A DNA stretch of 64,000 nucleotides from positions 2,624,675 to 2,688,674 of the forward strand of contig OZ244889.1 in assembly GCA_965221425.1 (NCBI GenBank), read 5' to 3'. This DNA comes from Candidatus Poribacteria bacterium. GTDB taxonomy: Bacteria > Poribacteria > WGA-4E > WGA-3G. The notes below the pieces were generated by a model, which was given only the letters and a program-made list of their open reading frames with translations, had not been told where the DNA came from and made no database searches. The position numbers and the translations under genes are program-made. Of this stretch, positions 12,111-63,066 are shown piece by piece. The first letter of the stretch is position 1. The number at the start of each line of letters is the position of its first letter.

Positions 12111-12125
12111 AGCCTGAAAACGGGT

Positions 12126-25402: not shown

Positions 25403-25546
25403 TAGATCTGACCTCTCTTATGTTGAATATGATTATGTATAGTGGAATCTCCAATTAATGGGACACTTCTGTAGCGTCCACTGTTAGTTTGCGTCTCATA
25501 CTAAATTAACGTGATCCATGCTCAAGAACATGCCTGAACACATTTC

Positions 25547-40278: not shown

Positions 40279-40506
40279 AATAGAAGTAAAAAGTCTATTT
40301 TAACGTAAGTTCGGAGTAAGATATACAGTTCTCAATGCTCAATTCTACTCTGATAGCCACGGTAGGTGCGGTTTCCTAACCACACTTTGTAGCATAAACT
40401 TTTAGTTTGTGCATCCGTGGAACGCAAACTAAAGTTTGCGCTACGAAAGATCGCTTATACTGAACTCACGTTATTTTACTTTCTCAAAAAATCATTGGAG
40501 AAACAC

Positions 40507-43058: not shown

Positions 43059-43368
43059 GTATGTAAATATTTTGGCAAAAGTTTGGGCTAAGGTGCGTTG
43101 TCCACGACATTTCCCATTTTTGCTGTCTGAATCGCGGATTTCACCAAATCAACGGTATGAATGCGCGTATGGCATTCCCCGGATGACGCGGATTATTCTT
43201 ATCCTATACAAATAAACACATCCAAGAAGAATTAACACAAGGCGTATACAGGTATACATCTCTATCCGCCATCCTCTCAAGGACGATTTGGAATGTCAAA
43301 CACATAATCCGCGTACTTCCGCGTCATCCGCGATTCAGACAACACGCATGCCAAAAACTTTACACACC
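43059..43368. mobile_element. composite MITE: family C shell with family A fragment nested
   Basis: ggtatgtaaatattttggcaaaagtttgggc…tgtctgaatcgcggat … atccgcgattcagacaacacgcatgccaaaaactttacacacc. The interior carries aaatcaacggtatgaatgcgcgtatggcattcccc. Confidence 0.65.
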
Positions 43369-45558: not shown

Positions 45559-45605
45559 ACATCCAAAATTATTGCAGAAGCAAACGTTTGGAAGATGTGT
45601 AATAT

Positions 45606-46133
45606 AGTAGATTTTAGAATTAATTGAACACTCTTGATCTGTGCGTTTAGCAAACCTAACCATAGGCGTCAATTTAGCGTGCATCCAGGCCCGGTAGGTT
45701 CGGTTTGTAACCGAACCATAGGCGTCAATTTAAGGGGTAAATCCATTTGGCAGTGTCTTCAGTCCCGTAGGGACGATATGTTTATAGATATGAAATGTAT
45801 ATATGTCTTTAGTCCCGTAGGGACGATATGTGTATCCCAACGACATATTTTTTACATATCGTCCCTACGGGACTAAAGAGGCGTTGTTCAACGTTTTTCT
45901 ATAAACATATCGTCCCTACGGGACTAAGATGTGGACAGTTCCAATCGTCATGCCTATTCAGAAGGGCTTTTAGAACAAGAAATATTTTCTAAAATTGACG
46001 CCTATGGTGCGGTTACAAACCGAACCTACCGGCCTGGGCATTCAGTGCATAATTCTTTTCTTAAATTGACGCCTATGGTTCGGTTTCCCAACCGAACCGA
46101 ACATAATGTCCAATTAATTCTAAAGTTTACTAT
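45606..46133. mobile_element. MITE-like element family B (528 bp) with double (outer+inner) terminal inverted repeats and internal palindromic 21-mer quartet
   Basis: Outer TIRs are tagtagattttagaattaattgaaca…aaccataggcgtcaattta (left) against taaattgacgcctatggttcgg…gtccaattaattctaaagtttactata (right). Inner inverted pair is ccggtaggttcggtttgtaaccgaaccataggcgtcaattt (45691) / aaattgacgcctatggtgcggttacaaaccgaacctaccgg (45994). The 21-mer agtcccgtagggacgatatgt occurs twice directly (45760, 45810) and its reverse complement twice (45856, 45906). Confidence 0.75.
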
Positions 46134-46306
46134 ATTATCTGCTGATCAAGGTGCCTCCTCCGTAGCGGCAACCGCCCGATCGCGACTTTACAACAAAAAC
46201 GCATAAAAACTGAATAGCTCTGTTTAAGTGAGTAAATTTTTTCGCTAAACAGTGCAAAGGTGCATCCGAAAATGTGTATAGAAAAAATCATTAGGAGATA
46301 TATTTA

Positions 46307-49300: not shown

Positions 49301-49567
49301 CAAGACTATGCGGAAATAAGCTATCACTATCCAATGACACTTGGACGTGCGCATATTGCAAATGATCGCTATGATGATGCACTTAGATATTTCAAATATG
49401 CTCTAAGTATTCTATCTGCTGATGCTTCATTAGACTATTTTTGGAAACAAGTCGTTGATGCAAGCAAGAATGCAAAGAACAAAGAAAGGTACAATCAAAT
49501 GTTAGCTGCGTTGATAAATTCCATGCCGCCGGAATATTCAAGCTCTGTGCAAATGTTTACCAAATAA
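46307..49567 (+). CDS. TPR-repeat protein with embedded LamG (concanavalin A-like) domain
   Basis: 1086 aa with a signal anchor. The N- and C-terminal thirds are TPR-like (…AIEIYERILKG…YAHTNQHEKAAQTY…). Residues ~600..800 form a LamG_3 domain (SLDGDGSFVEIVD…GLIDEVRIWNIARTEKQIRSDM…GYWKFD). taggagat RBS. Confidence 0.7.
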   Translation: MAHTKLSFFIIIFLLITVVTFVAELGVEEVSNEQERLITQEFIAAAQKFIERGEIDKAIEIYERILKGTPEDFESRAQLATLYAHTNQHEKAAQTYSKLLETDPENITYQDGLVDSLQAAGKHNEALEIAQAYIQTQPEVGVHYARLARVYEAEGNETAAIASYEKAIELGYGDKQTYLKLARLNFFNEDIDDAEIALKNAILSATSASERQEIEQQLLNFYRYHGNLEEKLQKAEDDGTITYEMQKARAENFHKIGELEKALNAYKRAQELTISSYQKERISAELLKIYVQLGDMDSAIEPYQTEANSDTNSKLRSFTAERITVTSARIAAIYEMEIARDSLIAAFKSQDKLEVLKTHYEGKLEKNKDNPVALTILARIYWDERNYQKAAEVYEALGKAEPNDVRYFYYAAAALKRNKQPELAKEMLNQAKQALASCSEKDDARFLGSLATICIENRMYEPTIELSKSAIDKSDSDTDSRIQDTLREILAKSYRETKRYVEAYDIYQESDTRSRAKNAIRAIAKEGKFYEKWIPEQLKKVEMNPNDPNLISELAESYEATDKIKHAIEQYQKLTKLQPEENAYWYIKLGDLFQRVDRPIGKVIESNALSLDGDGSFVEIVDSEIINNISEQVTISAWIKPTGFPNTCTTVLFKGDKRTPNLSHRQFALWLFDEGCAYFDASPNGRFIRWIASNSESIEKNEWYHVAATIDARNDSVKLFLNGAEIRKSNFKGQNNLTKTTLPFRIGCSHEEEISEHASFAGLIDEVRIWNIARTEKQIRSDMNKQLDGDEAGLVGYWKFDAETQGRVSDSSPHKNDGKLIGNAKLEPYTRPILASLKDEYFTKSVAYYEKAIELNPKIYQRYTDLANLYIKQNQASDAEAVYMQALDAPLTQARHDSLIRAISELYADEGQEAKLIAILEEIEPKMQESVVLHELLGDLYNKVGDSDKAEIANAKWLNIRQKEVNGQEAYYQRWFAEELLEKGLFPETTLKYATRALQDYAEISYHYPMTLGRAHIANDRYDDALRYFKYALSILSADASLDYFWKQVVDASKNAKNKERYNQMLAALINSMPPEYSSSVQMFTK

Positions 49568-49740
49568 ATGTCAACCTTGGTTTAGTGGTTTACTCGCTAA
49601 ACATTTATTATATGTAGAACGGACAGAATAACCCCAAAAGTCCCATCTCCCTTGAATGAAGATTAATTTATTAATTCGGTAATTTTCTGCCCAATATGGA
49701 AGACATTCTTGGATAGTGTGTGCCAATTCTTTGATTCTTG

Positions 49741-49770
49741 TTGCTGAAAATACATTTTACCGTGTATAAT
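49741..49770 (+). promoter_or_regulatory. sigma70-like promoter (ttgctg-18-TGtataat)
   Basis: Extended -10 (gtgtataat), about 40 nt upstream of the 49812 start. Confidence 0.35.
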
Positions 49771-49811
49771 ATGTTCACATTGAGATACTATCTTTGAAGG
49801 AGATATATATC

Positions 49812-50819
49812 ATGAAAGTTAAAGTCACGTTCACGATAATCGGTATCATTGCTTTACTAATGATAGGTTTGTGTATTCCTACAGCAAATTTCGCACAAGA
49901 AAAGCCGAAAGAGAACTCTATAGCAAAGAACATTATGTTGCCACATCATATTGATGGCGGAACTACGATAATGTTAGATCTCTCCAGACATATAGGTCTA
50001 ACCGATGATGAAACAAAGAGACTTACGAATGCTTTATCTGTAAAACAAACAGACAAAGCCGCCGCTACTAAGGGTGTAACGATTGAATTGTTAAAACCTT
50101 TGGATTCTATTGTTCACTCTAAGGCCCTTGTTATTCGACAAATCAAAGCAAACCCTGCAGTTAATATAGTGGATGCTGCAAAACATGCAGATGTTAAAGT
50201 AGAGTTTACATTTAAAATTCAAACGCCAGTAGATGATGTTGCACTACAGGAAGAATTGATTAAACAGCTGGATGGAAACAACGTTATCTTTACGGAGGCA
50301 GTTCAAGGAAATCGTGATACAGTCTTGATTAGACTCTATAACACAACAAAAAGCCGTATCAACCTAAAGAATTGGCAAATTCGATTGACCTACGGTGCCA
50401 TGCCGGATGCAACAGAGGCAACAACAGTTAGAGTAGTTGACAGGATGAGCAATGTTAATGAAAAAGTTGAGGTGCTCCCCAAATTGCGAAATACCCGAAC
50501 TGGGATTGATCTCCCACGCAACATCATCATGTTTCGTAAGATTGACTTTAAACTTCTTGACGATCCAACAAAAACACAGGATGAACAATTAGCTGCCATT
50601 TCTGATGGCACACGTCAATCCGGTTGGCACATGAAAAAACCATCAAATCAACCCGAGTGGGATGAAATTAACGACGCAGAAAACAAACTCAAAAACCAAA
50701 AAGAACCGTTAATTCTGGTTGTTCCAGGTAAAGGTAATCCTAAGGTTGAAACTCAAGTAATCATTAAACCTCGTAAACAAATTGAAAACGCCTCCTCACC
50801 ACCTACCGATGATCGGTAA
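49812..50819 (+). CDS. secreted hypothetical protein
   Basis: ATG with aaggagat RBS; signal peptide MKVKVTFTIIGIIALLMIGLCIPTANFAQE. Confidence 0.5.
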   Translation: MKVKVTFTIIGIIALLMIGLCIPTANFAQEKPKENSIAKNIMLPHHIDGGTTIMLDLSRHIGLTDDETKRLTNALSVKQTDKAAATKGVTIELLKPLDSIVHSKALVIRQIKANPAVNIVDAAKHADVKVEFTFKIQTPVDDVALQEELIKQLDGNNVIFTEAVQGNRDTVLIRLYNTTKSRINLKNWQIRLTYGAMPDATEATTVRVVDRMSNVNEKVEVLPKLRNTRTGIDLPRNIIMFRKIDFKLLDDPTKTQDEQLAAISDGTRQSGWHMKKPSNQPEWDEINDAENKLKNQKEPLILVVPGKGNPKVETQVIIKPRKQIENASSPPTDDR

Positions 50820-51161
50820 AACCGGATGGGCGTTTCTCTGTATACGAAGGGCGGTGTTTATAACCGTCCTTTTGCTTTTCAGTTGGTAGTAATGTTATCA
50901 TTCAAATTTCTTCTTTAGAAAATTGAGTGCTTCGTCAAGAATTAATAAAAAGAACCCTCCATAAATTGCTATTATGAAGTGAAGAAACAGACCATCTTCT
51001 ATGAAACGGACAAAAGCCACCAATATAGTAAACTTTAGAATTAATTGGACATTAGGATCGGTTTGGTCAGAAAACCGAAACTAACGCAGACACTGTAGTA
51101 CAACCTGTATGAGAATAAAAAAATAAATTAGGTAATTCGTGGAAATATCCAGTGCGGTTAG

Positions 51162-51324
51162 ATGAAGATTAAAAAATAAATTGAGTAATATAGCGAGGTT
51201 AGGAAACCTCGCCAGCAGAGATACACACCTGCTGATGGCGAGGCGGGGAATGCCTAAATGGCATTCATACCGTTGATTTCTTCCTAACCTCGCCAAATTA
51301 CCGAATTAATAACTTAAACTTCAT
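51162..51324. mobile_element. MITE-like palindromic element family A, complete copy
   Basis: atgaagattaaaaaataaattgagtaatatagcgaggttaggaaacctcgccagcagagatacacacctgctgatggcgaggcggggaatgcctaaatggcattcataccgttgatttcttcctaacctcgccaaattaccgaattaataacttaaacttcat. TIRs are about 45 nt and an internal hairpin is present. Confidence 0.8.
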
Positions 51325-51683
51325 GAAACCGCACCTACCGGGTTTGGGGGAAATTAGAATTACCCACTAAAAAACTTAATCTTCATTTAGGTTATGTTCC
51401 GTTTCTGCCCAACCTAACAAGTTGTGCTACAAAATATGCCCTTTAATTCTAAATGTCACTATATAAGAAAACAGATAACAATTACCCGAAAAAATCGCAT
51501 GATTTCTCCTTCCTAATTCCGACAGGATTTTGTAATTTGAGGGTGGGACAACAGAAAACCCACAATAAATTGTGATTGAACACTGTAACACTTGAAAATA
51601 GCCAAAATGCGTAAGTCATCTTTTTGTTGTTTTCATAACAATCATTATATCATTATGAAAAGTAGATACAAAGCATATTTAAG

Positions 51684-51713
51684 ATTGACACCCGTTCTGT
51701 AAAAAGAGTATAA
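51684..51713 (+). promoter_or_regulatory. near-consensus sigma70 promoter (ttgaca-18-tataat)
   Basis: ttgacacccgttctgtaaaaagagtataat, about 90 nt upstream of the 51803 lipoprotein gene. Confidence 0.45.
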
Positions 51714-51802
51714 TACCAATTAACCTTATTTTGGAATTTCCGACGAGATAAATTCGGTGAGTTACAGAGACCTCACTCTACAGATTGGGTGAACTTGATA
51801 TA

Positions 51803-52306
51803 ATGAAGAGACAGATAAAACTGCAATTACGGGGAATTATACTCGTAGGCATCTGCGTAATTGCGTTGCTTGCATGCGGAAGCGGGGAAATCCAAAATTT
51901 TGAGGGCATTCAGGTTCTATCCGATCCACGTACAGATCGGATAGACATCAGGATTTATCTGCTTGATAAACATGGAACCCCTCTTATATGGAGCCAGAGC
52001 ATTCTCAGTCCCAACGTTGGTGTTAGTACTGTTTCAGAAACTGATTTTATCACCAACGTAGAAGTCTACTCTATGCGGGATGGCAAGAAACATCGGAAGG
52101 TTTACGATGGAAGATTATACCATGTCCGATGGGCGCAAGAACCGAATAGTTTTGATAGACTCCTGAGCGCAGAAATTCCGCGCTGGCTCATTGAAGAAGA
52201 CCCTGAACGCGATACATATTTAGGCGTTATTACAGTTGAAGTCCAAACCGAAAAACAAGGACCTTTTACAGATACCATAGAAAGCACCGCTATTTATAAG
52301 AGATAA
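51803..52306 (+). CDS. lipoprotein, hypothetical
   Basis: Lipobox LLACG. Confidence 0.5.
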   Translation: MKRQIKLQLRGIILVGICVIALLACGSGEIQNFEGIQVLSDPRTDRIDIRIYLLDKHGTPLIWSQSILSPNVGVSTVSETDFITNVEVYSMRDGKKHRKVYDGRLYHVRWAQEPNSFDRLLSAEIPRWLIEEDPERDTYLGVITVEVQTEKQGPFTDTIESTAIYKR

Positions 52307-52308
52307 CA

Positions 52309-53169
52309 ATGCCTATTCACACACAAGACTATCGCCATTGGGAAGGCACACTGAAACCTCGCAATCATACACGGTGGTGGGTTATTGCGAAAGCAGAACT
52401 GAAACTGCTTGCGCAACGCAAAATCGTCCGATTAATTGTTGCGATTCCACCGGTAATCTACATTCTGTCCTACGGAATCTTTATCTATATTTTTAATATC
52501 CTTCCACATGTACCTACTGAATTTGATATTGATAGCGGTTTCTTTCAAGGATTTCTATTCAGGCTTCAAACGTTTCCATCTGCGTTTTTGGTTGCGTTAG
52601 TCGTTATTTTTGGAGGTGCGGGGTTAATTGCCAATGATCTAAAGCACAACGCGCTTTCGCTCTATTTGTCTAAACCGATTTCATGGGTAGATTACCTTAT
52701 CGGGAAATTTATTGTGATCGGTAGTTTGCTTTTCTGTATGACGTTAATTCCTGGACTATTACTATTTCTTGAACATGTGTTGTTAACCGATACACCCTTT
52801 CTTAAAGAAAATTATTGGCTACCCTTATCTATCATCATCTATTCCGTAATAATCACCATCATTACCAGTCTATTAATGTTGTTTTTCTCATCGCTCACCA
52901 CAAATTCTCGCTATGCGACGATCGGTTTTTGCGCTGTTTGGTTTGGATTGCCTGTCATTCATCTCATTCTTAAAGAGGTGATCCCGAGTAGCACAGTAGC
53001 TTTAGTTTCGGTCTGGACGAATCTTGATCGTCTTGGAAATGCCCTCTTTGGTTTAGAAAGTGGTTATAATATACATTGGTCTTGGTCACTCCTTTTATTA
53101 GCTGCTTTGACTGCTGCATGTATCCTTGTTCTCCGCCATCGGATACGGGCGGTATCAATTGTTAAATAA
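52309..53169 (+). CDS. polytopic membrane protein (possible ABC-2-type permease)
   Basis: Six hydrophobic segments; starts 3 bp after the lipoprotein stop. The family is uncertain. Confidence 0.45.
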   Translation: MPIHTQDYRHWEGTLKPRNHTRWWVIAKAELKLLAQRKIVRLIVAIPPVIYILSYGIFIYIFNILPHVPTEFDIDSGFFQGFLFRLQTFPSAFLVALVVIFGGAGLIANDLKHNALSLYLSKPISWVDYLIGKFIVIGSLLFCMTLIPGLLLFLEHVLLTDTPFLKENYWLPLSIIIYSVIITIITSLLMLFFSSLTTNSRYATIGFCAVWFGLPVIHLILKEVIPSSTVALVSVWTNLDRLGNALFGLESGYNIHWSWSLLLLAALTAACILVLRHRIRAVSIVK

Positions 53170-53191
53170 TCCTACATTATCCCATCTATAT

Positions 53192-54049
53192 CTACTTTAA
53201 TCTTGCCCTATTTGCATCCCACATCTCAGTCTCGGAGTAAATCTGTGGGGGTGTTATTGGGGTTAACGTTGGTGTCCAGTCTGGTTGGAATTGTTGAACC
53301 AGCCGTACAGCATTTTGATATGCAATCCGTTCTTTTGTCTCATCATCAAGGTGTGCAGATTCAATCTGTGCTTGAACAAGGCGAAAATCATAGTATGGCA
53401 GATCACTACCGAACATAATTCTATCGTTACCGAGGTTATTGACAAGGTGTACTAAGTCCCAACTTTCATCCCCCTCAGGTTTTTGCGCAACATCATACCA
53501 TATATTTTCTTGTTTCCCACAATGCGCAATTGCATCAAGGTGTCCTGCTTTGTTCATTGAGACATGTCCGATAATGAACGTAATTGTCGGGAACCTTTGT
53601 GCATACGCAGCGATATTTTGTGTTGAACCTGCCTGATGTAGCAAACACAACCCGTTGTGCATTGCTACCACTTCCAGGAATGCGTATAATTCTCCACCAA
53701 GTGAATGTCCGGATAACGCCGGATGGCACGCGAATCCGACTAAGCCATCGTCACACATTGCCCTATCCAGCTCGTCCACGCCTGCTTGTTCATGCCGCAC
53801 TTCTACAATTCCAAGCCCGATGGGAAAACGTTCCGGGTACTTTCGGCAAGCATTTGCAATAACCTCGTTCTGTGCGCGCGTATCTAATACACCGCGCGCT
53901 TGCGGCCCGCCAGCTGTCGGACACGGAATCGCACCAATAACATTTGCCGAAGCCATCCTGGCAAGACATCGTCCAACACTCTGTCCAATAACCGGCGCGC
54001 GTGATACCGTCATGCCGATGTGGCAGTGTACATCAAAATAAGAAAGCAT
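53192..54049 (-). CDS. amidohydrolase-2 family (TIM-barrel metal-dependent hydrolase)
   Basis: N-terminal FDVHCHIG and an internal HxxH…D pattern. Confidence 0.65.
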   Translation of the reverse strand: MLSYFDVHCHIGMTVSRAPVIGQSVGRCLARMASANVIGAIPCPTAGGPQARGVLDTRAQNEVIANACRKYPERFPIGLGIVEVRHEQAGVDELDRAMCDDGLVGFACHPALSGHSLGGELYAFLEVVAMHNGLCLLHQAGSTQNIAAYAQRFPTITFIIGHVSMNKAGHLDAIAHCGKQENIWYDVAQKPEGDESWDLVHLVNNLGNDRIMFGSDLPYYDFRLVQAQIESAHLDDETKERIAYQNAVRLVQQFQPDWTPTLTPITPPQIYSETEMWDANRARLK

Positions 54050-54148
54050 AAGTCAACCTCTTTATAGTGAAACCTATAATTAACGTGAACTCGGTAAAAT
54101 CTTTGTAGAGCAAACTGTTAGTTTGCGTTCCACAGATGCACAAACTAA

Positions 54149-54468
54149 ATGAAGATTAAAAAATAAATTGGGTAATATAGCGAGGTTAGGAAGAAATCAA
54201 CGGTATGAATGCCATTTAGGCATTCCCCGCCTCGCCAGCAGAGATACACACCTGCTGATGGCAAGGCGGAGAATCATGGCGAATACCATACGGGGAATGC
54301 CATACGCGCATTCATACCGTTGATTTGGCGTATTCGCCCAATGGCATTCATACCCGGGGAATCATGGCGAATACCACACGCGTATTCGCCCAACGTCATT
54401 CATACCGTTGATTTCTTGATTTCTTCCTAACCTCGCAAAATTACCGAATTAATAACTTAAACTTCATA
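54149..54468. mobile_element. nested family A MITE cluster (≥3 interleaved copies)
   Basis: The outer ends atgaagattaaaaaataaattgggtaatatagcgaggttaggaa … ttcctaacctcgcaaaattaccgaattaataacttaaacttcat enclose several ggcattcataccgttgattt / catggcgaataccatacgggg sub-units. A family D palindrome sits immediately upstream (54103..54148). Confidence 0.75.
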
Positions 54469-54573
54469 AAGTTTGTGCGACAAGCTCACGTTGTCCGTAG
54501 CAACTTGAGTAATTATAGCAGAAGCAAGTTCTGGATGCAAGGTTTTGCCATTTTGATTCAGAACCATTCAGGA

Positions 54574-54602
54574 ATTGACATAACTTAAAATGTTTGTTAT
54601 AA
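54574..54602 (+). promoter_or_regulatory. perfect-consensus sigma70 promoter (TTGACA-17-TATAAT) for modA
   Basis: ttgacataacttaaaatgtttgttataat, 38 nt upstream of the modA ATG. Confidence 0.55.
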
Positions 54603-54640
54603 TTTTTTTCGCGTTAACCCACGATTTAGGCTAAATCATT

Positions 54641-55432
54641 ATGTTTCAACACGCTAAATTTTACACATTTTTTGTGTTTTTGTTTATATTTACAGAACTT
54701 CTGGGATGTGGAAATAGACAAAAAGCCCCTGAATTAAGAGTTTTTGGTGCAGTGAGTTTGACAGATGCTTTGACTGATATAGGCAAGCTGTTCACTGCAA
54801 AGCAAGGTGTTAAAGTCAGCTATAATTTTGCGGCATCTTCAACGCTGCAACGTCAAATTGAAAAAGGGGCATCGGTAGATGTTTTCATTTCAGCAAGTCC
54901 TCAACAAGTTACCGCGCTTGAAACCCGTGATATGCTTGAAACAGATAGTCGTCACAACATCTTGTCAAACCGGTTAGTCCTTGTTTCTCATAAAAACGCT
55001 GTTTTATCTGTAGAAACTGTTGATACGCTTGCCGATGATGCTGTTTCGCGAATTGCTATTGGACAGCCTGAAATTGTGCCTGCTGGCACTTATGCAAAAG
55101 AGGCTTTGGAACGACTTGGCCTGTGGAAAAAGGTACTACCAAAGTTAGTCTTTGGGATAGATGTGCGAGCGACACTTGCTTATGTCAGTGCAGGAAATGT
55201 TGACGTAGCGATTGTCTATCAAACAGACGTAACACTGAGCAAAAATGTCAAAATACTTTATGAATTTCCTGACAAAACCCACAAACCTATAGTATATCCT
55301 GCAGTTGTTCTGAAAGATAGTCAACAAAAACAGTTAGCGCAACAATTTATTACGTTTTTAAAAACATCTCGTGCCACTAAAATTTTCGAGAAACACGGAT
55401 TTGCTTGTTTAACATCAGATTCTACACAGTAG
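54641..55432 (+). CDS. modA: molybdate ABC transporter substrate-binding protein
   Basis: Signal peptide; LRVFGAVSLTDAL…VSYNFAASSTLQRQIEKGASVDVFISA matches the ModA pattern. Confidence 0.85.
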   Translation: MFQHAKFYTFFVFLFIFTELLGCGNRQKAPELRVFGAVSLTDALTDIGKLFTAKQGVKVSYNFAASSTLQRQIEKGASVDVFISASPQQVTALETRDMLETDSRHNILSNRLVLVSHKNAVLSVETVDTLADDAVSRIAIGQPEIVPAGTYAKEALERLGLWKKVLPKLVFGIDVRATLAYVSAGNVDVAIVYQTDVTLSKNVKILYEFPDKTHKPIVYPAVVLKDSQQKQLAQQFITFLKTSRATKIFEKHGFACLTSDSTQ

Positions 55433-55453
55433 AAATGGATATGCTGTATTGCA

Positions 55454-56125
55454 ATGAGGATAACCGCAGCCGAAATTACCGCTCTTATCTTATCTATAAA
55501 AGTTGCATCGTTGAGCCTCATTGTGATGTTTCCGCCAGGACTGCTTGTCGGATGGCTGCTTGCAAAACGGGATTTTCCGGGAAAATCTCTCTTAAATACA
55601 TTCGTCATGCTGCCATTGGTTCTCCCGCCTGTCGTAAGCGGATACCTGCTGCTTATTCTCCTGAGTAAACATGGACTTATCGGAGGATTCTTATTTAACG
55701 TTTTCAATTTAGAGCTCGTTTTTTCACCTTTCGCTGTTGTAATTGCCGTTTCAATCATTTCTTTTCCTTTATTAGTACGGGGTATTATAACAGGGATGGA
55801 GTCTGTGCCGATCGAGCTTGAAAACACTGCCCGTACACTTGGCGCATCACCGATAAAAGTCTTTTGGACAATAACCCTACCGCTTGCATCTCGCGGCATT
55901 ATTGGGGGAGCAATTCTCGGTTTTTCTAAGAGTCTTGGCGAGTTTGGAGCTACCCTCATGGTGGCAGGTAATATTCCCGGTAAAACTCAGACAATGGCGC
56001 TGAGTATTTATCATGCGGTCCAACTCGGACAAGATATCACGGTTTATCGATTGGTGTTTATTTCAACCGTTGTCGCATTTATTGCTATCTGGTTAACAGA
56101 ACGTATCACGATTAGACAGCGTTAG
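55454..56125 (+). CDS. modB: molybdate ABC transporter permease
   Basis: Strong co-linear similarity to E. coli ModB (LSLKVA…FPGK…LPLVLPPVV…GEFGAT…). Confidence 0.9.
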   Translation: MRITAAEITALILSIKVASLSLIVMFPPGLLVGWLLAKRDFPGKSLLNTFVMLPLVLPPVVSGYLLLILLSKHGLIGGFLFNVFNLELVFSPFAVVIAVSIISFPLLVRGIITGMESVPIELENTARTLGASPIKVFWTITLPLASRGIIGGAILGFSKSLGEFGATLMVAGNIPGKTQTMALSIYHAVQLGQDITVYRLVFISTVVAFIAIWLTERITIRQR

Positions 56126-56261
56126 TTTCGATTTTTATAACTCAAGTTGCTAAGGACAAGGTTTTAGACCTGCAAACACCGTTTTTTAGAGAGAATGATC
56201 CATTTTTCGCAAGATTCCGTAGTGCAAACTGTTAGTTTGCATCCTCACAGACACAAACTAA

Positions 56262-56576
56262 CTGAAGCTTAATTCATTAATTCGGTAATTTTCGGTACGC
56301 ACAAGGCTTGAATACCATACGGGGAATCATGGCGAATACCCATAGGCGTCAATTTAAGAAAACATAAGAATTATTATGCTCACTTTCGATACACCCGGTT
56401 ATTGGGTTTACCCTCTTTTTAGTCCCGTGAATCAACGCCAAATACCATACGCATATTTGGCGTTGATTCACGGGACTAAAGATACCGCATAATACAAATC
56501 AAAATTCTTAAATTGACGCCTATGGTTCGGTTTCCTAACCGAACATAATGTCCAATCAATTCTAAAGTCTACTATA
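56262..56576. mobile_element. chimeric repeat: family A terminal fragment fused to 5'-truncated family B MITE
   Basis: cttaattcattaattcggtaattttcgg…ggggaatcatggcgaataccc runs directly into ccataggcgtcaatttaag…, with an internal hairpin agtcccgtgaatcaacgccaaat…atttggcgttgattcacgggact. The sequence ends with the family B right TIR taaattgacgcctatggttcggtttcctaaccgaacataatgtccaatcaattctaaagtctactata. Confidence 0.7.
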
Positions 56577-56739
56577 AGAGGGAAGTCCAAAATCGTGACG
56601 CAGGCAATTCGCGTATTTTTTGGAATTATTCTTATCCTGTTACACTTTTTCAATAGGCGCGATTTACGCATTTCTACATATTTTTTAGTCTCGATTTCCG
56701 TCTCTCAACAAATTTGGTATTTTTTGTGCATTTTTTTCT

Positions 56740-56768
56740 TGACAATTCATTTGCAACATGTTATAATA
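56740..56768 (+). promoter_or_regulatory. perfect-consensus sigma70 promoter (TTGACA-17-TATAAT)
   Basis: ttgacaattcatttgcaacatgttataat. Confidence 0.45.
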
Positions 56769-56775
56769 GTATTTG

Positions 56776-57090
56776 ACGTTGGGAATCCATGCAGCGTGCG
56801 TGGGTTACGTCAGGGTGCTTCCTAATCTATTTTGGTTAGGGTGCGGTCGCTAGTGATACCACACCAGCGAACGCTTGCACTGCCATAGAAGTTAGTATGA
56901 CAGCGCTGGTTAGCATTATAACATGTAGACACCCTTGTGTGCCATGTTATAATGCTAACCAGCCCCTATAGGGACAAATTACCAAAACCTTTCTTTGTTG
57001 GCGTACGCCAACACCCCTATAAGTCTGTCATCATTAGAATAATCAATACGCCGCATATCGGCGTAAAGGAAACGCCTCTTTTTTAAACAG
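56776..57090 (+). ncRNA. candidate structured ncRNA or long leader (unknown class)
   Basis: Downstream of the consensus promoter there is a 20-bp perfect hairpin (ctggttagcattataacatg…catgttataatgctaaccag, 56896..56955), palindromes cccctataggg and ttggcgtacgccaa, and a terminator-like ggcgtaaaggaaacgcc+tctttttt at ~57058..57085. No credible ORF is present. Confidence 0.25.
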
Positions 57091-57130
57091 ATAGAGGCAA
57101 CCATAATCTATATAAACAAGGAGTTTTCTA

Positions 57131-57664
57131 ATGTTGAAACAGAGAGTCTTTCAAATCGCAGTAATTTTTGCTGCATTCATGATGTTTAATTTAACGGTTC
57201 ATAGTGGTGAACGTTGTAACAGACCTACCGACGTTGACAGCGGTGTTCGCCCAAACACTGGTACCTTCGGGCATGCAGAAGTTGTTGGCTTGGGATGGTA
57301 TAAGCGTGGCAATGATTACTATGCCAATGTAACGTTATGGGGATACGTTGAGAACGTCAGTCTTGAAAAAATATCTGCGTCCGTTCTGTATGATTTTCGG
57401 GTTATTGAACTGACCCCGAATTTCAATTTTAAAGCTCAGTGGTACGTTCCTCCTATTACCGTAGTTGCGGACCAACTCGATCCAGGTGAAACTCTTATGC
57501 CTTCTTCTTACACGAACGGCCTGATGGTTCCTGGCGGTGATTGGCTGCAAGGTATAGTAGCACGCACTGAGACGATGATCCAGGCTGAAGCAAGAGGAGG
57601 AAAACGTGGACAACTGGTCGACGTATGGTTCGCATGGGGATGCGTCGACATAGAATTTGATTGA
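57131..57664 (+). CDS. secreted hypothetical protein
   Basis: aaggag RBS; signal peptide. Confidence 0.5.
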   Translation: MLKQRVFQIAVIFAAFMMFNLTVHSGERCNRPTDVDSGVRPNTGTFGHAEVVGLGWYKRGNDYYANVTLWGYVENVSLEKISASVLYDFRVIELTPNFNFKAQWYVPPITVVADQLDPGETLMPSSYTNGLMVPGGDWLQGIVARTETMIQAEARGGKRGQLVDVWFAWGCVDIEFD

Positions 57665-57746
57665 TTATTCAACACGTTTTCTTACACAGGTGTCTTTATA
57701 CAAGGCACCTGTGTTTTATAAACCATGACGGACGCATTCCCCTTGA

Positions 57747-57908
57747 ATGAAGTTTAAATAAATATTTCGGTAATTGGCAAGGTTAGGAAACCTTGCCAGC
57801 AGCAGGTGTACATCTCTGCTGGCGAGGCGGGGAATGCCATTTAGGCATTCATACCGTTGATTTCTTCCTAACCTCGCAAAATTACCCAATTTATTTTTTT
57901 ATCTTCAT
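57747..57908. mobile_element. MITE-like element family A, complete copy
   Basis: atgaagtttaaataaatatttcggtaattggcaaggttaggaaaccttgccagcagcaggtgtacatctctgctggcgaggcggggaatgccatttaggcattcataccgttgatttcttcctaacctcgcaaaattacccaatttatttttttatcttcat. Confidence 0.8.
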
Positions 57909-57988
57909 ATAAGGGGTTAGGGGGTTAAATAGTTCGGTATTTCAGTCTTTTTCGTCTTTTTAACCCCTAAATCCCCCTTATCAAGGGG
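57909..57988. repeat. family G long hairpin, second copy
   Basis: ataaggggttagggggttaaa…ttaacccctaaatcccccttatcaagggg, directly abutting the family A copy. Confidence 0.7.
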
Positions 57989-58068
57989 ACTTTAAGTGAA
58001 AATGCGTCCGTCCTGATAAACAATTGTGTGCAAGTAATTATAGATTTCACTATAAAAGGAGTTTTCTC

Positions 58069-59103
58069 ATGAAATATAAACCTTTTCAGGCACGTTACCA
58101 GAAAAATATAGCTCTCGTTATTCTACTTCTTTTCGGCTTCTCCATCTTGCAAAGTTCGGATGCAAAAATTGTCTTTAGATCTAACCGAGAGGGGAATATT
58201 CCGCATATCTACGTGATGGAAGACAACGGTAGTAATGTCCGAAGAATCACAGACCTCGCGTATTATGCTAGGCGCCCACACTGGTTTCCTGATGGAAAAC
58301 GGGTTGTGTTTGAAAGAGACCTGTCACGTGGGGATGGAACGAACTTCCACACAGAATTCGTTATCGTTGACCTCAAACCTCGCAAAGAATACCATTTTAT
58401 GAAAAATCACCGGACGGATCGTTTTCCGAGAGTATCTCCTGATGGGAAACAGCTTGCTTTTCTCAGCAACCGCTTAAAAGATTGGCATATTCATGTGGCA
58501 GACTTAGAGAGCGGTGCGGAAACGGCTATCACTGCGAAACACGCTGATTTAGGTATCCCTAGCTACATGAATTGGTCTCCCGATGGGAAACAGCTTGTTT
58601 ATATACACGGGGAAAATGATCTGGGAGCGCAGATATGGATCATGAATGCTGATGGTAGTCGTCCCAGACGCCTCAGTCATCCGATTGAGGAAGGAATCAA
58701 TAGGGTTTTGAAGTATTTACCGAGTTGGTCGCCATCGGGTCAATTCATCATGTATTCAGAAGTTACCCTAACGCCTAATTTTGAAAAGGTAGGCCCTACA
58801 CGGCTCATTTTCCAGAGTGTGAGGACAAGACAGACCGATATACATAACTTTCCGCGAGATTATGCGATCAACAACGGGTGTTGGATAAATGACCGCATAG
58901 TGCTTTTAAGTATAAAAGCAGGGGTAGGTGAACCAGAAGCTAATTGGGAGATTTATAGATATGACCTTACCAGCAAAAAATTGACAAACCTGACAAAACA
59001 CCCAGCAAAGGATTTCCACCCAGATTGGATTAGTGGGACGCTTGCTGTGTTTCCATTGGACAAACTCACTATTCGCTGGGCACACCTCAAGCAGCCAGAT
59101 TGA
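58069..59103 (+). CDS. PD40/TolB-like periplasmic beta-propeller protein (paralog of 31462..32478)
   Basis: KIVFRSNREGNIPHIYVMEDNGSNVRRIT…PHWFPDGKRVVF…PRVSPDGKQLAF…MNWSPDGKQLVY…PSWSPSGQ. aaaaggag RBS. Confidence 0.7.
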   Translation: MKYKPFQARYQKNIALVILLLFGFSILQSSDAKIVFRSNREGNIPHIYVMEDNGSNVRRITDLAYYARRPHWFPDGKRVVFERDLSRGDGTNFHTEFVIVDLKPRKEYHFMKNHRTDRFPRVSPDGKQLAFLSNRLKDWHIHVADLESGAETAITAKHADLGIPSYMNWSPDGKQLVYIHGENDLGAQIWIMNADGSRPRRLSHPIEEGINRVLKYLPSWSPSGQFIMYSEVTLTPNFEKVGPTRLIFQSVRTRQTDIHNFPRDYAINNGCWINDRIVLLSIKAGVGEPEANWEIYRYDLTSKKLTNLTKHPAKDFHPDWISGTLAVFPLDKLTIRWAHLKQPD

Positions 59104-59139
59104 AGCGAACGCTAAATTGGAACCTCCCTATCAGGTGCG

Positions 59140-59305
59140 ATTTCCTAACTACACACTTAGAAATCGGTATGCAAAGTAGTAGGCACACTCTGCGGGGAAT
59201 GCCTAAATGGCATTCATACCGTTGATTTGGTGCCGTCTATACCCCCAAAGAATGTGTGTGGCGGACGGCACGCGGAGCGTGCCTGCTACTTTTAAATCAA
59301 CGCTA
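59140..59305. repeat. family A/H repeat fragment
   Basis: ggggaatgcctaaatggcattcataccgttgatttgg together with agtaggcacactctgcgg / ggcacgcggagcgtgcctgctact (family H, also at 34080 and 61575). Confidence 0.6.
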
Positions 59306-59314
59306 AAACGGATA

Positions 59315-60643
59315 TTACTTTTGCAAATGAACTGTTAACTTTTCTGTGCCGTGGCTGCTTTTAATATCAAAAATTAGTTCCAATGCATCCTGCTCAGCCT
59401 GAAGCAACGCCTCAAGCGTTTGAACGTCAGCAATTTCTTTCCCATTAATCGCGAGAATAAGCGCACCACGCGGAATTTTTGCATTAGATCCAGGTGCGTC
59501 TTTCTTTACCCTTTCAACAATTACACCACGATCTATATCTGTTAGGTAGGCGTATCTCTCGGCATCCCCCTTCTCCAACTTTCGAACTGCTAACCCGAGC
59601 ATTTTCCACGAAGCAGATTCACTTTCAAAGGGTATGCCTGCCATTTCCGGTGGCATTTCATCAATAGTTACACTGAACGTCCTTTCCTGCCCGCGCCGTA
59701 ACACCTTGATAACAGATTTTTTGCCAACCTGTGATTCTGCGATAAGCATCTGGAGTTCAATACTTTTTTGTACCTTTTTCCCATTATATCCAACAATAAT
59801 ATCATGTCGCTCTAAACCGCCACGGTACGCTGGTGTATCCAGATAAACGTTTCTCACTTGAATACCTTGCGGTACTTCTCGCATCCGAATACCGAGGTAG
59901 CCACGGATAATTTTACCGTTGGCAATCAGTTGAGTGCCAATTGTGTTAACGAGATTACTGGGAATCGCAAACCCTGCCCCCGCTCTCGCCGGAGCAGGTG
60001 TGTTTTCAACTTTTCGGATTAGCGCATTAATGCCGATGACTTCGCCATGGATATTGAGCAGCGGCCCACCACTACTGCCGGTATTGATCCACGCATCTGT
60101 CTGAATGAAGTTTTCGTATCTAATAAAACGCAAGCCGCCAAGAATGGAACGCCCTTTACCACTCACAACACCAGTCGTAACGGAGTAATCAAGTTGGAAA
60201 GGATTACCGATAGCAATGGCAAATTGTCCAACCCGAACCTTTTCCGAATCCGCTAACGACAGAATTGGGAATTCCTGATCTCTGTCAACCTTTAGAACAG
60301 CAATATCTGTGTTAATATCTGTTCCAACTAATTTAGCATCAAGTGTGCTACCTTCTAATAACCTTACTTTGTAATATTCCGCACCGTGAACAATATGGTC
60401 ATTTGTTAAAATATAACCGTCTTGCCGAAAGAAAAATCCAGAACCGGATCGATTTAAATCCCTATTTGAATGTCCTGCAAAAATACCGACAATAGCGGGC
60501 TTGCTTGTAGCAGCAATATCAACAAATGCGTTTTCAATCGCACTTAGCAGTTCCAAATTACTCGGTTGTTCAGTTCGGTAGGCACACGAAGAGATAATAA
60601 CAACAAAAAGGAGTAGAACACAATTATAAATCTTTTTTCTCAT
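59315..60643 (-). CDS. htrA: HtrA/DegP-family periplasmic serine endoprotease with two PDZ domains
   Basis: His/Asp/Ser triad context: TNDHIV, DIAVLKV, GNSGGPLLN. The listed ORF extends to 60676; the internal ATG at 60643 is the preferred start. Confidence 0.9.
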   Translation of the reverse strand: MRKKIYNCVLLLFVVIISSCAYRTEQPSNLELLSAIENAFVDIAATSKPAIVGIFAGHSNRDLNRSGSGFFFRQDGYILTNDHIVHGAEYYKVRLLEGSTLDAKLVGTDINTDIAVLKVDRDQEFPILSLADSEKVRVGQFAIAIGNPFQLDYSVTTGVVSGKGRSILGGLRFIRYENFIQTDAWINTGSSGGPLLNIHGEVIGINALIRKVENTPAPARAGAGFAIPSNLVNTIGTQLIANGKIIRGYLGIRMREVPQGIQVRNVYLDTPAYRGGLERHDIIVGYNGKKVQKSIELQMLIAESQVGKKSVIKVLRRGQERTFSVTIDEMPPEMAGIPFESESASWKMLGLAVRKLEKGDAERYAYLTDIDRGVIVERVKKDAPGSNAKIPRGALILAINGKEIADVQTLEALLQAEQDALELIFDIKSSHGTEKLTVHLQK

Positions 60644-60699
60644 CAAACAATTCCTTCTTTCAGAAAGTTTTATCAAGATTATACCAAATTCTAAGTCTC

Positions 60700-61118
60700 A
60701 TAGTGAAATCCAAAAATATGTTTACATTTCAATCAACAACAATCCCTACACACACTCTCGCTGGCGAGGCGGGGAATCAAGGCGTATACCTTATGCGTAT
60801 TCATACCGTTGATTTCTTCCCAACCTTGCCAACCTAAAGGTAATTATAATAAAACCTATAATTAATGGGACATTTCTGTATCGCAAACTGTCAGTTTGCG
60901 TCAAATATGCACAATCTAAATGAAGTTTAAGTTATTAATTCGGTAATTTTGCGAGGTTAGGAAACCTCGCCAGCAGAGATACACACCTGCTGATGGCAAG
61001 GCGGGGAATGCCTAAATGGCATTCATACCCGGGGAATGACTAAACGTCATTCATACCGTTGATTTTTTGATTTCTTCCTAACCTCGCTATATTACCCAAT
61101 TTATTTTTTAATCTTCAT
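60700..61118. mobile_element. nested repeat cluster (family E/A fragment, family D palindrome, complete family A element 60920..61118)
   Basis: tagtgaaatccaaaaatatgtttacatttcaatc…cgctggcgaggcggggaatcaagg; ctgtatcgcaaactgtcagtttgcg; then atgaagtttaagttattaattcggtaattttgcgaggttaggaaacc…ttcctaacctcgctatattacccaatttattttttaatcttcat. Confidence 0.75.
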
Positions 61119-61199
61119 ACAGATTGATGCTCAAGTACTGTTGTCCATTATGTTTCCAAAATAGATTTGTCAAAGTGTCCCAATAATTTCAAAGTTCAC

Positions 61200-61340
61200 T
61201 ATATTGTCCGTAGACTTCATAAGATGATGTGTTCTTTAGTCCCGACAAATGCCATAAGCGCATTTGGCGTTGATTTGGTAGGGACGATATGTTTATAGAA
61301 AAACGGCATACACACCCTCTTTAGTCACGTAGGGACGATA
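61200..61340. repeat. family B internal-module fragment
   Basis: ctttagtcccgacaaatgccataagcgcatttggcgttgatttggtagggacgatatgtttatag…tagggacgatatgtgtccaac. The gggacgatatgt half-sites and the agtccc…atttggcgttgatt hairpin are shared with 45760..45926 and 56400..56480. Confidence 0.55.
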
Positions 61341-61716
61341 TGTGTCCAACATAAAATTCAATATATGTGAAAATAACACAAACAATTTGTTAACTGGCAC
61401 AAGTCGTTATAAAGTAAAATCTAAGAATGACATCTACAAGGAACACACTTTGTAAGCGCTCAGCATAATATGTACGGGCACCAGGTATACAAGACTTTTT
61501 CTGACACCCGTTACAGACTAATTATTATTGAGGGTATGCATAAATAATTCTGATGTTAAATATGCGTTTAAAGGTAGTAGGCACACGCCGTGTGCCGTCC
61601 ACAAGTTCAAAGAGGCGCAATGAATTGCGCGACTACAAACAGCACTTTGTGAAATAAGGCCGCACCTAAAGTCCGTCCCTGTCTGTGCTGATGCGCCAAA
61701 TATTTATGCACACCTC

Positions 61717-63066
61717 TCAATTATTATTTAACTCTACCGTTACCTTTTCTATACCCTGGATACTTTTAATATCAAAAGTAACATTTGGTCCGTCTTGTTT
61801 ACCTTGAAGAAATGTTTCAAGAGTTTGAACGTCAACAATTTCTTGTCCATTAATAGCAGTGATGAGCGCGTTACGTGGAATATTCGCTTTGAATACGGGA
61901 GAATCTTTCTTAACTTTTTCAACGATTATGCCACGGTCTTCTTCACTTAGGTAGGTATATCTTTGAAAAATTCCATTCTCCAACTTTCGCACGACTAACC
62001 CAAGTGTTTTCCAAGAAACGGATTTAGTGTTAGCGGGGCGTCCTACTAATTCAAGTGGCATCTCATCAATAGTCACATTGAGTGTCATTTCCTGTTTTTG
62101 TCGTAGTACCTTAATAGGATATGGCTTGCCGATCTGACACTCCGCAACCATCAATCTGAATGCATAAAGCCCTGGCACCTTTTCCTCATCGAATTCAACG
62201 ATGATGTCATGCCGTTTTAAACCACACTGAAATGCGAATGTGTCAGGTGCTACTTTTGTAATTTTAATACCTTGTGAAACATTTTGCATATCCGCGTCAA
62301 TGTAGCCACGGATAATTCTTCCATGTGTAATCAGTTTATTCCCGATTGTTTTCGCGAGATCACTATTAATCGCTAAGCTTGATCCCTCTCCCGGGTTTAA
62401 GGTAGTAATACCAATTACCTCACCTTGAATATTCAGCAAGGGACCACCGCTACTCCCTTTGTTAATCCAAGCATCTGTTTGGATGTAATTATTATGATAC
62501 TGAAAGAGTTTTGTTTTTGGTGGATGAAAACAACGGTCTTTGCCGCCGACGATACCAGATGTCACAGTATATTTATATCCTATTGGGTGACCGATGGCGA
62601 TAGCAAATTGTCCGATTCGGACCTTCGTTGAATCCGCCAGGGAGAGAACCGGAAATCCTTCTTCTCGTTCAATTTTTATAACCGCTATATCAGTGTTCAG
62701 ATCGCTCCCAACTATTCTTGCATCAAATGTGCTGCCATCAAATAATCTCACCCTAACGCTTTTTGCGCCACGTATAACGTGTTCATTCGTCAAGATATAA
62801 CCATCTTTCCGAAATATAAAGCCGGAGCCTGAACCTGATGTATCAATAGTTTTATTATCTTTTTGTTCTTCTTTTCTAACGGTAAGGCTGACAACAGCAG
62901 GTTTACTCTGATCTACGATCTTAGAAATAGCGTTTTCAAAAGATCTTAATATTCCTAAATCGTCAGGTTGGGTGGCTGGTGATGCCTCTGCAGTAATAGT
63001 AACAGCGAACAAGATCAAAACAGCATAGGCGATTGTATCTCTTTTCAGGTTTGTTTTTCTTTTCAT
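61717..63066 (-). CDS. htrA: HtrA/DegP-family serine endoprotease with two PDZ domains (second paralog)
   Basis: TNEHVI, DIAVIKI, GSSGGPLLN. Co-linear with the 59315 gene (GSGF[IF]FR[KQ]DGYILTN[ED]H[VI]…). Confidence 0.9.
   Translation of the reverse strand: MKRKTNLKRDTIAYAVLILFAVTITAEASPATQPDDLGILRSFENAISKIVDQSKPAVVSLTVRKEEQKDNKTIDTSGSGSGFIFRKDGYILTNEHVIRGAKSVRVRLFDGSTFDARIVGSDLNTDIAVIKIEREEGFPVLSLADSTKVRIGQFAIAIGHPIGYKYTVTSGIVGGKDRCFHPPKTKLFQYHNNYIQTDAWINKGSSGGPLLNIQGEVIGITTLNPGEGSSLAINSDLAKTIGNKLITHGRIIRGYIDADMQNVSQGIKITKVAPDTFAFQCGLKRHDIIVEFDEEKVPGLYAFRLMVAECQIGKPYPIKVLRQKQEMTLNVTIDEMPLELVGRPANTKSVSWKTLGLVVRKLENGIFQRYTYLSEEDRGIIVEKVKKDSPVFKANIPRNALITAINGQEIVDVQTLETFLQGKQDGPNVTFDIKSIQGIEKVTVELNNN

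Follow-up and report, generated by a model that had tools for sequence, protein, structure and literature searches.

The DNA analysed here, a 64,000-nt stretch from Candidatus Poribacteria (hereafter, the window), carries a family of palindromic intergenic repeats, family A, whose focal copy lies at 51162-51324. Family A is very probably a Poribacteria transposable element of the miniature inverted-repeat kind (MITE) with the ends of an IS630-family insertion sequence (IS), both MITE and IS being inserted at the dyads of palindromes without any requirement for TA. This targeting of palindrome apices, with a non-TA duplication of 0 or 1 nt that is common to the IS and the MITE, is what appears to be new. 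The window was compared with related genome and metagenome stretches (L-numbers), and window and related loci together (507 kb) were used for pairing termini and for clustering open reading frames (ORFs).

Family A shares its ends with a complete IS630-family insertion sequence

In the window there are 17 instances of the family-A terminus pattern (ATGAAGWTTAA-N-GGTAAT), where dinucleotide shuffles predict 0.06; a 33-nt core occurs 6 times (0 expected from shuffles), and GCGAGGTTAGGAA 12 times (0.04 expected). All three are far above expectation, so the recurrence described in an earlier note on this DNA is real, and the similarity between copies is not one of low-complexity stretches. The termini define seven complete and three truncated elements of 82-319 bp (Table 1). 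The 64 kb thus hold 10 elements, and pairing of termini over the 507 kb gave 37 copies, in keeping with bacterial MITEs, which are small (below about 300-500 bp), non-coding and present in many copies. No copy contains an ORF, and a gene-context tabulation placed every copy between genes, where the note had put nearly all of them; the focal copy also reads exactly as described there.

The partner IS came to light by reading the sequence beyond unpaired arms. In four related loci (L013, L032, L072 and L073), about 70 nt beyond such an arm, come a ribosome-binding site and an ATG-initiated ORF that starts MAKRH..L.L(S/T)DEQ and carries IS630-type helix-turn-helix (HTH) domains. Complete copies with both ends are present at L074 2930-4171 (1242 bp) and L075 2930-4168 (1239 bp), and 22 further independent full-length insertion sites were found. 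The IS is 1239-1244 bp long, with terminal inverted repeats (TIRs) of ~28 bp and a single ORF of 384/385 aa, which fits the IS630 family as known from ISfinder (about 1.0-1.4 kb, TIRs, a single transposase gene). The reconstructed 384-aa transposase matches NF033545 (NCBIfam transpos_IS630) with 173.9 bits (cutoff 100) and Pfam PF13358 (DDE_3) with 70.9 bits, along with HTH_23/28/29/32. It has 1432 homologues at E<=1e-30, many of them intact at 384 aa and many on contigs of ~1241 bp. One protein, P0150, is present in identical form on at least 23 contigs, a spread that points to recent activity. The first four IS matches were truncated or frameshifted; programmed frameshifting was rejected, since the two frameshifts differ in position and intact 384-aa copies are common, which leaves defects of single copies or read errors as their cause.

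Each of the 17 arms in the window agrees with an IS end at 23-28 of 28 positions, with no similarity beyond about nt 28. Two of them, the left arm of 54149-54467 and the right arm of 60920-61118, match the left end of the L074 IS at 28/28, and the right arm of the focal copy is identical at 25/28 to an end of the P0150-type IS (its left inverted repeat in L077). The TIRs of ~45 nt given in the earlier note thus have to be shortened: the stretch in common with the transposon ends is ~28 nt, and the GCGAGGTTAGGAA that follows belongs to an inner hairpin. Inside these ends family A is unrelated to the IS and consists of a moderately conserved ~30-nt stretch and a GGCGAGG/CCTCGCC hairpin. Since a complete IS630-family IS has these ends as its TIRs, family A can be classed as a non-autonomous MITE, and the MITE-like reading made earlier is now backed by a partner with the same ends and an intact 384-aa transposase. 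An IS630-type transposase would bind the shared ends and move the MITE in trans by cut-and-paste.

The partner IS is multi-copy in Poribacteria metagenome-assembled genomes (MAGs) and in sponge-type metagenomes, and is absent from the window. No transposase or integrase domain was detected in the 50 window ORFs, and tblastn with the partner transposase found no remnant in the window, with fragments in the Poribacteria MAG loci L009, L013 and L032; the absence of transposase genes that had been noted for the window is thereby borne out. All-against-all clustering of 582 ORFs (507 kb) yielded no multi-copy transposase.

Genes of other mobile elements were seen near IS copies, namely IS4/DDE_Tnp_1-type transposases and IS605 OrfB/TnpB (L032 26-460; L076 2633-4093; L081 4125-4155; L092 1776-1958), which suggests repeat-rich islands in these genomes. 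One palindrome, CGGTAGGCGCGGTT..AACCGCGCC, holds the IS in opposite orientations on two contigs of a single sample (L080 and L084), reflecting either independent insertions at one site or inversion of the IS.

MITE and IS copies lie at the centres of palindromes

The flanks of MITE and IS copies form inverted repeats that start two nucleotides from each junction, irrespective of sequence. A palindrome centre, with two loop bases on each side of the element, was found at 56 of 59 independent MITE and IS sites. At 44 of 47 sites (35 MITE, 12 IS) at least 7 of 12 flank positions are complementary, vs 2.5% of 20,000 random intergenic points; at a threshold of 8 of 12, p is about 1e-58. Twelve more independent IS sites, from two further IS subfamilies and with ten from a HiFi assembly, all reach at least 7 of 12. 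Ten IS copies with an identical protein lie in at least six different palindromes, so the flanks cannot be element sequence that has diverged.

The form (T)GTAGCACAAACT-nnn-AGTTTGTGCTAC(A) accounts for about 60% of the hosts, and a second common host reads GGTAGGTGCGGTT-nnnn-AACCGCACCTACC. The two have in common a GTAG/CTAC tag as described for repetitive extragenic palindromes (REPs; PMC3733652). The other hosts are unique GC-rich hairpins, the loops of small S-type hairpin units described below (L026:356 and L028:567), and the central hairpins of other family-A copies, insertion into which produces nesting. GTAG-tagged REP hairpins are often paired as doublets, giving a longer hairpin that resembles the REP doublets known as REPINs.

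In one related locus (L103, 1-330) host REP doublets flank both sides of a fragment of a Y1 transposase resembling the REP-associated tyrosine transposases (RAYTs). Its C-terminus has the motif FWQHESYDH...NPVTAGLV and a weak match to PF01797 (E=0.004 over 99 aa); no RAYT was found in the window. That the doublets flank a RAYT-like gene supports the status of the host hairpins as REP/REPIN-type elements, and a REP/RAYT system is apparently present in Poribacteria. Target choice would be structural: the transposase would pick the apex of a bent or extruded hairpin or cruciform and not a sequence.

One nucleotide or none is duplicated on insertion

A direct target-site duplication (TSD) of 3 nt was found in 0 of 35 copies, and one copy had a 4-nt match. 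The tabulation of TSDs suggested in the earlier note, which returns no conventional direct duplication of >=3 nt, is thus misleading for this family. In 47 of 59 sites (control 31%) an identical base precedes ATGAAG on the left and follows CTTCAT on the right; the junction bases are complementary in 10 (T^A or G^C) and neither in 2, the nine T^A sites being compatible with TA.

Paralogous copies of the host repeats served as empty sites. The host GTCCC-GTA-GGGAC, when filled, reads GT-element-TA, with 1 nt duplicated; so does CCCCTT-GAT-AAGGGG, filled as GA-element-AT, and the empty paralogues of 57747-57908 (L032 2694-2821, L019 and L031) have a loop 1 nt shorter. One nucleotide is likewise duplicated in REP hairpins, whose loops are mostly 3 nt and which keep two loop bases on each side when filled (1-nt junction gaps), and in the S-unit loop TAAAT (TAA-element-AAT). 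The AGGA tetraloop, filled as AG-element-GA, shows no duplication, and the joined flanks of the outer element 51109-51386 align gaplessly to uninterrupted copies at L032 7090-7225, L018 3464-3569 and L060 3527-3628. These empty sites indicate that elements insert at the dyad and duplicate 1 nt where the loop is odd and nothing where it is even. A 2-nt TSD was modelled in several forms (TA, AT or shifted boundaries), and all were rejected for their misfit at G/C junctions and tetraloop hosts, and a rule of cutting 2 nt from the stem was rejected since it fails at 5-nt loops.

Family A is built of modules

The basic element of ~115 nt consists of an arm of ~28-31 nt, the ~30-nt stretch, the hairpin CTGCTGGCGAGGTT-TCCT-AACCTCGCC and a second arm. 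The ~151-nt class is the same element with a 36-nt block, CGGGGAATGCC-TAAAT-GGCATTCATACCGTTGATTTC, between GGCGAGG and TTCCTAACC. A symmetric version exists as well, 127 nt long when it lacks this block and 163 nt when it has it, and longer copies carry additional small hairpins of this type, in tandem or nested. Because the length classes differ by exactly the 36-nt block, the "core" of the earlier note is a separate S-type module of 28-37 nt. The copies are thus not nearly identical units of ~165 bp, as they had been called, and fall instead into modular classes of 82, ~115, 127, ~151, ~162, 174, ~200 and 319 nt. The list of 13 loci given for the unit survives in part: the repeats do recur, and family-A termini are confined to nine intergenic spacers, while four of the loci and part of a fifth hold inner modules without family-A ends. 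At 11990-12075 and 18940-18975 the outer arms differ (TATAGT...TGGACA) and the inner GGCGAGG hairpin is common, with the core present or not; 43141-43180, 59175-59235 and 34040-34103 are the small core hairpin standing alone.

S-type units were found alone, in tandem, nested, and inside other outer-arm families. Their hairpin has conserved flanks (CGGG...ATACC), its loop can flip (TAAAT/ATTTA), and its stem variants covary (GAATGCC/GGCATTC, GAATGAC/GTCATTC, GAAGCCC/GGGCTTC). Within the GGCGAGG hairpin their point of entry is constant, whichever side they are on. In viral contigs the family-A arm is absent and the S-type unit was found once, in a viral-collection contig, with the stem GAAGCCC/GGGCTTC; an S-type tandem pair lies in an IMG/VR contig (L086 1385-1440). 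The S-type hairpin would be an independent module that secondarily entered the GGCGAGG/CCTCGCC hairpin of family A and then spread with the MITE subfamilies.

Together with its host stem, the focal copy is predicted to form one long branched hairpin, both as DNA (-47.9 kcal/mol, z = -11.9) and as RNA (plus strand, -81.5 kcal/mol, z = -11.9; minus strand, -89.5 kcal/mol, z = -13.2). In the predicted fold of the focal copy, GCGAGGTTAGGAA is also able to pair with 51281-51293.

Table 1 Positions and composition of family-A copies, their modules and other repeats in the window
Feature	Position	Strand	Description
Focal family-A copy	51162-51324		Complete; nested inside outer element 51109-51386
Left TIR of focal copy	51162-51189	+	Alpha type, ATGAAGATTAAAAAATAAATTGAGTAAT; 27/28 vs left end of the L074 IS
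Inner GC-rich hairpins	51193-51243	+	GCGAGGTTAGGAA-ACCTCGC, then CAGCAG-AGATACACAC-CTGCTG-AT-GGCGAGG; predicted folds
S-type module	51244-51280	+	28-nt hairpin unit CGGGGAATGCC-TAAAT-GGCATTCATACC plus GTTGATTTC; "core" of the earlier note
Closing arm of inner hairpin	51281-51296	+	TTCCTAACCTCGCC
Right TIR of focal copy	51297-51324	-	Beta type; reverse complement ATGAAGTTTAAGTTATTAATTCGGTAAT
Outer degenerate family-A element	51109-51386	.	Subfamily with central GGTGCGGTT-AGGA-AACCGCACC hairpin; focal copy in its tetraloop (AG-element-GA)
Complete copy, 174 nt	1555-1728	+	~151-nt type with extra nested small hairpin; host, loop of GTAG-tagged REP-like hairpin, GTAGCACAATCT GT-element-TT AGATTATGC
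Copy with intact beta arm 34368-34395	34146-34395	-	Several nested S-type units; far arm truncated
Minimal complete copy, 82 nt	36591-36672	+	Two arms flanking GCGAAGTT-AGGA-AACCTCGC hairpin; host, S-type unit whose right half (AATGGCATTCATACCGTTGATTT) resumes at 36673
Solo left arm, truncated remnant	49656-~49690	+	Adjoins CCCCTTGA half-hairpin
Complete copy, 319 nt	54149-54467	+	S-type units on both sides of central CAGCAG/CTGCTG hairpin, more nested units; host, second REP of REP doublet (54102-54148 / 54468-54481)
Truncated copy	56262-~56340	+	Diverged left arm CTGAAGCTTAA, variable region, nested-unit fragment; preceded by REP hairpin 56216-56261
Complete copy, 162 nt	57747-57908	+	In triloop of CCCCTT-GAT-AAGGGG, flanks GA-element-AT
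Complete copy, 199 nt	60920-61118	+	Two tandem S-type units; host, REP-like hairpin, CACAATCT AA-element-AC AGATTG
Empty GTAG-tagged REP-like hairpin (preferred target)	54102-54129	.	Family D11; loops mostly 3 nt
More empty REP-like hairpins	25468-25495, 33653-33680, 33941-33968, 40386-40413, 56216-56243, 60875-60902		
S-type units	12022, 34084, 34216, 43180, 51245, 54228, 54292, 57829, 59194, 61003, 61031		
B-arm elements	11949-12111, 18917-19036, 60713-60870		
B arms	46058-46134, 51022-51079, 56505-56576, 58012-58054, 61161-61203		
21-nt repeat GTGTCATCCGCGATTCAGACA	28215-28235, 33778-33798, 34007-34027, 34123-34143, 36698-36718, 43321-43341		

Signs of movement of copies and turnover of spacers

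Nesting is reciprocal, with S-type units inside family A and family A inside S-type units at the two loops named above, and paralogous filled and empty pairs exist for at least five host repeat families. Two orthologous spacers of the window and the ~92%-identical locus L008 have wholly different repeats. At window positions 704-733, L008 contains 340 bp made up of REPs, an S-type unit and a family-A copy of 117 nt; where the window has a REP and family A (1505-2275), the counterpart in L008 is a B-arm element, of the kind described below. The differing spacer repeats, the length classes set apart by whole modules, the reciprocal nesting and the truncated remnants together indicate mobility and turnover, and the main effect on the host would be fast turnover and growth of intergenic spacers.

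A metagenome scan around the modA-like gene gave a single syntenic contig, L060, and supplied no empty site; its synteny with the window ends at the repeat cluster, and the adjacent promoter is conserved. In the GFO_IDH-adh_short spacer of L079 (reverse complement), a 1.55-kb composite is bracketed by a 29-nt direct repeat, TTAGGAATYGGGACGTAGATACGCATCTT, and is absent from L087 and L088; it consists of a ~310-nt hairpin-bearing segment with an IS inside one of its hairpins. A 597-aa ORF of the window (2276-4069, weak Peptidase_S55 match) is absent from L008 with its flanks conserved (window 1521-4159 vs L008 5051-5502), and this region of presence and absence adjoins a repeat-rich spacer.

Weighing the explanations

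A reading in which family A is of the REP/BIME/REPIN type (BIME, bacterial interspersed mosaic element), spread by a RAYT (Y1/HUH) that acts on single-stranded hairpins, would account for the near-perfect palindromes with very strong predicted folds (z about -12), for the lack of a conventional TSD, and for neighbours that are genuine GTAG-tagged REP doublets and flank the RAYT-like gene in L103. It is nevertheless very improbable, as the ends are 23-28/28 identical to IS630-family TIRs and the full IS has the same insertion signature. Known REPs are palindromes of 20-40 nt with a GTAG or CGTC tag (PMC3733652), whereas family A spans 82-319 nt, begins with ATGAAG and has no GTAG tag of its own; what carries the REP signature is the host hairpins, and these are also found empty. 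In a literature search of incomplete coverage, we found no paper that describes these repeats, as a REP or BIME of a characterised species or otherwise, or that joins Poribacteria with MITEs or IS630.

The copies could also be kept mainly as cis-acting RNA or DNA elements, such as terminators, promoters or hairpins for mRNA stability or processing, or as a small RNA family, with mobility secondary. Their strictly intergenic location, RNA hairpins predicted to be extremely stable on both strands, and inner modules that are highly conserved across species-level MAGs would fit, as would their orientation: between co-directional genes (window and related loci), the alpha arm, which is the one like the IS left end, is upstream in 9 of 10 family-A copies. 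This possible bias, from a small sample with crude arm typing, may reflect transcription or replication. We consider such a role unlikely. An Rfam covariance-model search of the window gave 0 matches at gathering, and at E<=10 only spurious miRNA-type matches on other palindromes, none of them relevant to family A. Copies occur in all gene contexts, in both orientations and as truncated remnants, and their intergenic location follows from the targeting of intergenic hairpins.

The terminator or promoter role proposed earlier for the copies is likewise unsupported by a consensus scan of 49,500-61,800. Counts of promoter-like and terminator-like sequences there do not exceed those of shuffles; the sigma-70-like promoters matching at 12/12 (51685, 54575 and 56739) all lie outside copies, as do all hairpins of terminator type (at 50846, 59267 and elsewhere), with only two weak 9/12 promoter-like matches overlapping them. 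The modA-type promoter is conserved in L060 and the repeats beside it are not. The copies may still have an effect on RNA stability or processing.

Imperfect palindromes of 80-160 nt that stand every 1.5-3 kb between genes, as in the series from 49.6 to 61.1 kb, also call to mind an integron-like cassette array with attC sites, whose core sites have the consensus RYYYAAC/GTTRRRY; the inner GAAATCAAC and GTTGATTTC loosely resemble such sites. This is hardly credible here, given housekeeping genes of mixed orientation, some with their own promoters, no integrase domain in the 50 window ORFs, and elements that are scattered across many contigs and face either way. Moreover, GTTGATT violates GTTRRRY, and the ends belong to the IS.

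The IS630-partnered MITE is thus the reading we favour, and several points weigh against it. Transposases of the IS630/Tc1/mariner group are described as integrating strictly at TA, with a 2-bp stagger (PMC5481204), and for them a 0- or 1-nt stagger is mechanistically odd. The 10 of 59 sites with T^A or G^C junctions are compatible with other readings, the T^A cases including canonical TA. The interior of the MITE is unrelated to the IS, so that, judged from sequence, the MITE is no simple deletion derivative of it. The partner has been seen in related MAGs (L009, L013 and L032) and not in the window's own genome; the 59 genome loci were picked through an exact core match, which biases the subfamily frequencies; and an orthologous pair of filled and empty sites was not obtained, as L087 and L088 lack the whole host segment of L079.

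More tentatively, and with rather more room for doubt, a Poribacteria lineage of IS630/Tc1-mariner type may have dropped TA and the 2-bp stagger and come to hit the apices of hairpins or cruciforms whatever their sequence, in most cases REP loops, duplicating 0-1 nt and building together with its MITEs and the 28-nt hairpin modules self-nesting palindromes that fill the spacers. In the Mos1 complex the target is bent by ~147 degrees, target bases are flipped, and there is a bias to bendable palindromic sites (PMC5481204). By analogy, recognition of a pre-distorted hairpin or cruciform apex would be a plausible extension of such target bending.

Relation to known elements

The closest known case for family A as a MITE is RUP of Streptococcus pneumoniae with IS630-Spn1, a hairpin MITE of ~100 nt that is intergenic and high-copy and has TIRs like those of its proposed IS630-family mobiliser (PMC2229807). 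RUP inserts at TA (PMC2229807), whereas family A has no TA requirement, is centred on palindromes with a 0-1-nt duplication, is modular and nested, and belongs to another phylum. The Correia elements of Neisseria (NEMIS, Neisseria miniature insertion sequences) are similar in being abundant and intergenic, with a length of 100-160 bp, TIRs of ~24 bp, size classes set by internal blocks, and long RNA hairpins (PMC2229807). They differ in having TA termini and a TSD and no known partner transposase, while family A has a partner and does not use TA.

Several ISs insert specifically into REP palindromes (IS1397, ISKpn1, ISPpu9/10, ISPa11, ISRm22 and IS621), and ISRm22 does so exactly at the palindrome axis (PMC1525189). 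These belong to the IS3, IS110, IS4, IS256 and IS5 families, and most target one REP sequence (PMC1525189); the Poribacteria element, in contrast, has an IS630-type transposase and hosts unrelated in sequence, and its MITE behaves alike. The REP/BIME/REPIN and RAYT systems, with GTAG-tagged palindromes and doublets flanking a RAYT (PMC3116915, PMC3733652), resemble the hosts of family A, and the spacers look like BIME mosaics; family A, by its greater size, its IS630 TIRs and its lack of a GTAG tag, is a guest in REPs and no REP itself. No report of REP targeting by an IS630-family IS was found in the literature, with incomplete coverage.

The small dispersed repeats (SDRs) of Nostoc punctiforme were reportedly described by Elhai et al. 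in 2008 (Genome Res 18:1484). Identity of the Poribacteria repeats with cyanobacterial SDRs was rejected because the core matches Poribacteria MAGs. According to papers that cite that work, SDRs are very small mobile hairpin-like repeats of 21-27 nt that insert precisely into other repeats (PMC4390886, PMC5861425), so that of all known elements they would come closest to the S-type module of 28 nt found nested within family A. They are reported only in Nostocaceae (PMC5861425) and have no sequence relationship to the S-type module.

Other repeats and genomic setting

A second family, with B arms (...TGGACA..AATTAC..TATAGT/ACTATA), has the inner GGCGAGG hairpin and often an S-type unit, as family A does, within unrelated outer arms. 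The long palindromic repeats at 45603-45927 (TTTAGTCCCGTAGGGACGATATG) and 56421-56477 (AGTCCCGTGAATCAACGCC) gave spurious sub-threshold Rfam matches to miRNA precursors, and the former family hosts family A in L023. The six copies of the 21-nt repeat often lie beside S-type units, and the S-type unit at 43141 is bracketed by a direct repeat, AATCCGCG. Twelve-mers that recur four times or more in the window and related loci make up about 4.5 kb (7%) of the window, nearly all of it between ORFs.

The window has the genes of an ordinary chromosome, among them uvrB, a Kdo transferase, lon, a PBP1-type synthase, two HtrA proteases, the modA-like binding protein, PSCyt2/PSD1 and an FGE-sulfatase; no tRNA was found in it. 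An exact 57-nt core was detected in 59 stretches of the genome collection, 58 from Candidatus Poribacteria MAGs (nine assemblies) and one from an uncultured-bacterium MAG. Contigs of CBDHCS01, a Candidatus Poribacteria MAG, align to the window with 83-93% identity over ~5.4 kb in four pieces.

Implications

The dominant non-coding signal of an uncultivated, ecologically important phylum of sponge symbionts can now be named together with the IS that is very probably responsible for it, which aids annotation, assembly and strain typing. Elements of the mariner/Tc1/IS630 group are the textbook case of strict TA integration and serve as genome-engineering tools; if the apex targeting proposed here is true, a natural relative that aims at palindrome apices would allow a direct test of the roles of target bending and base flipping in specificity. 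Every insertion would make a new palindrome centre, open to further insertion, and so give rise to nested palindromes. REPs, as landing pads, would keep the insertions away from genes, a safe-harbour link between two kinds of selfish DNA.

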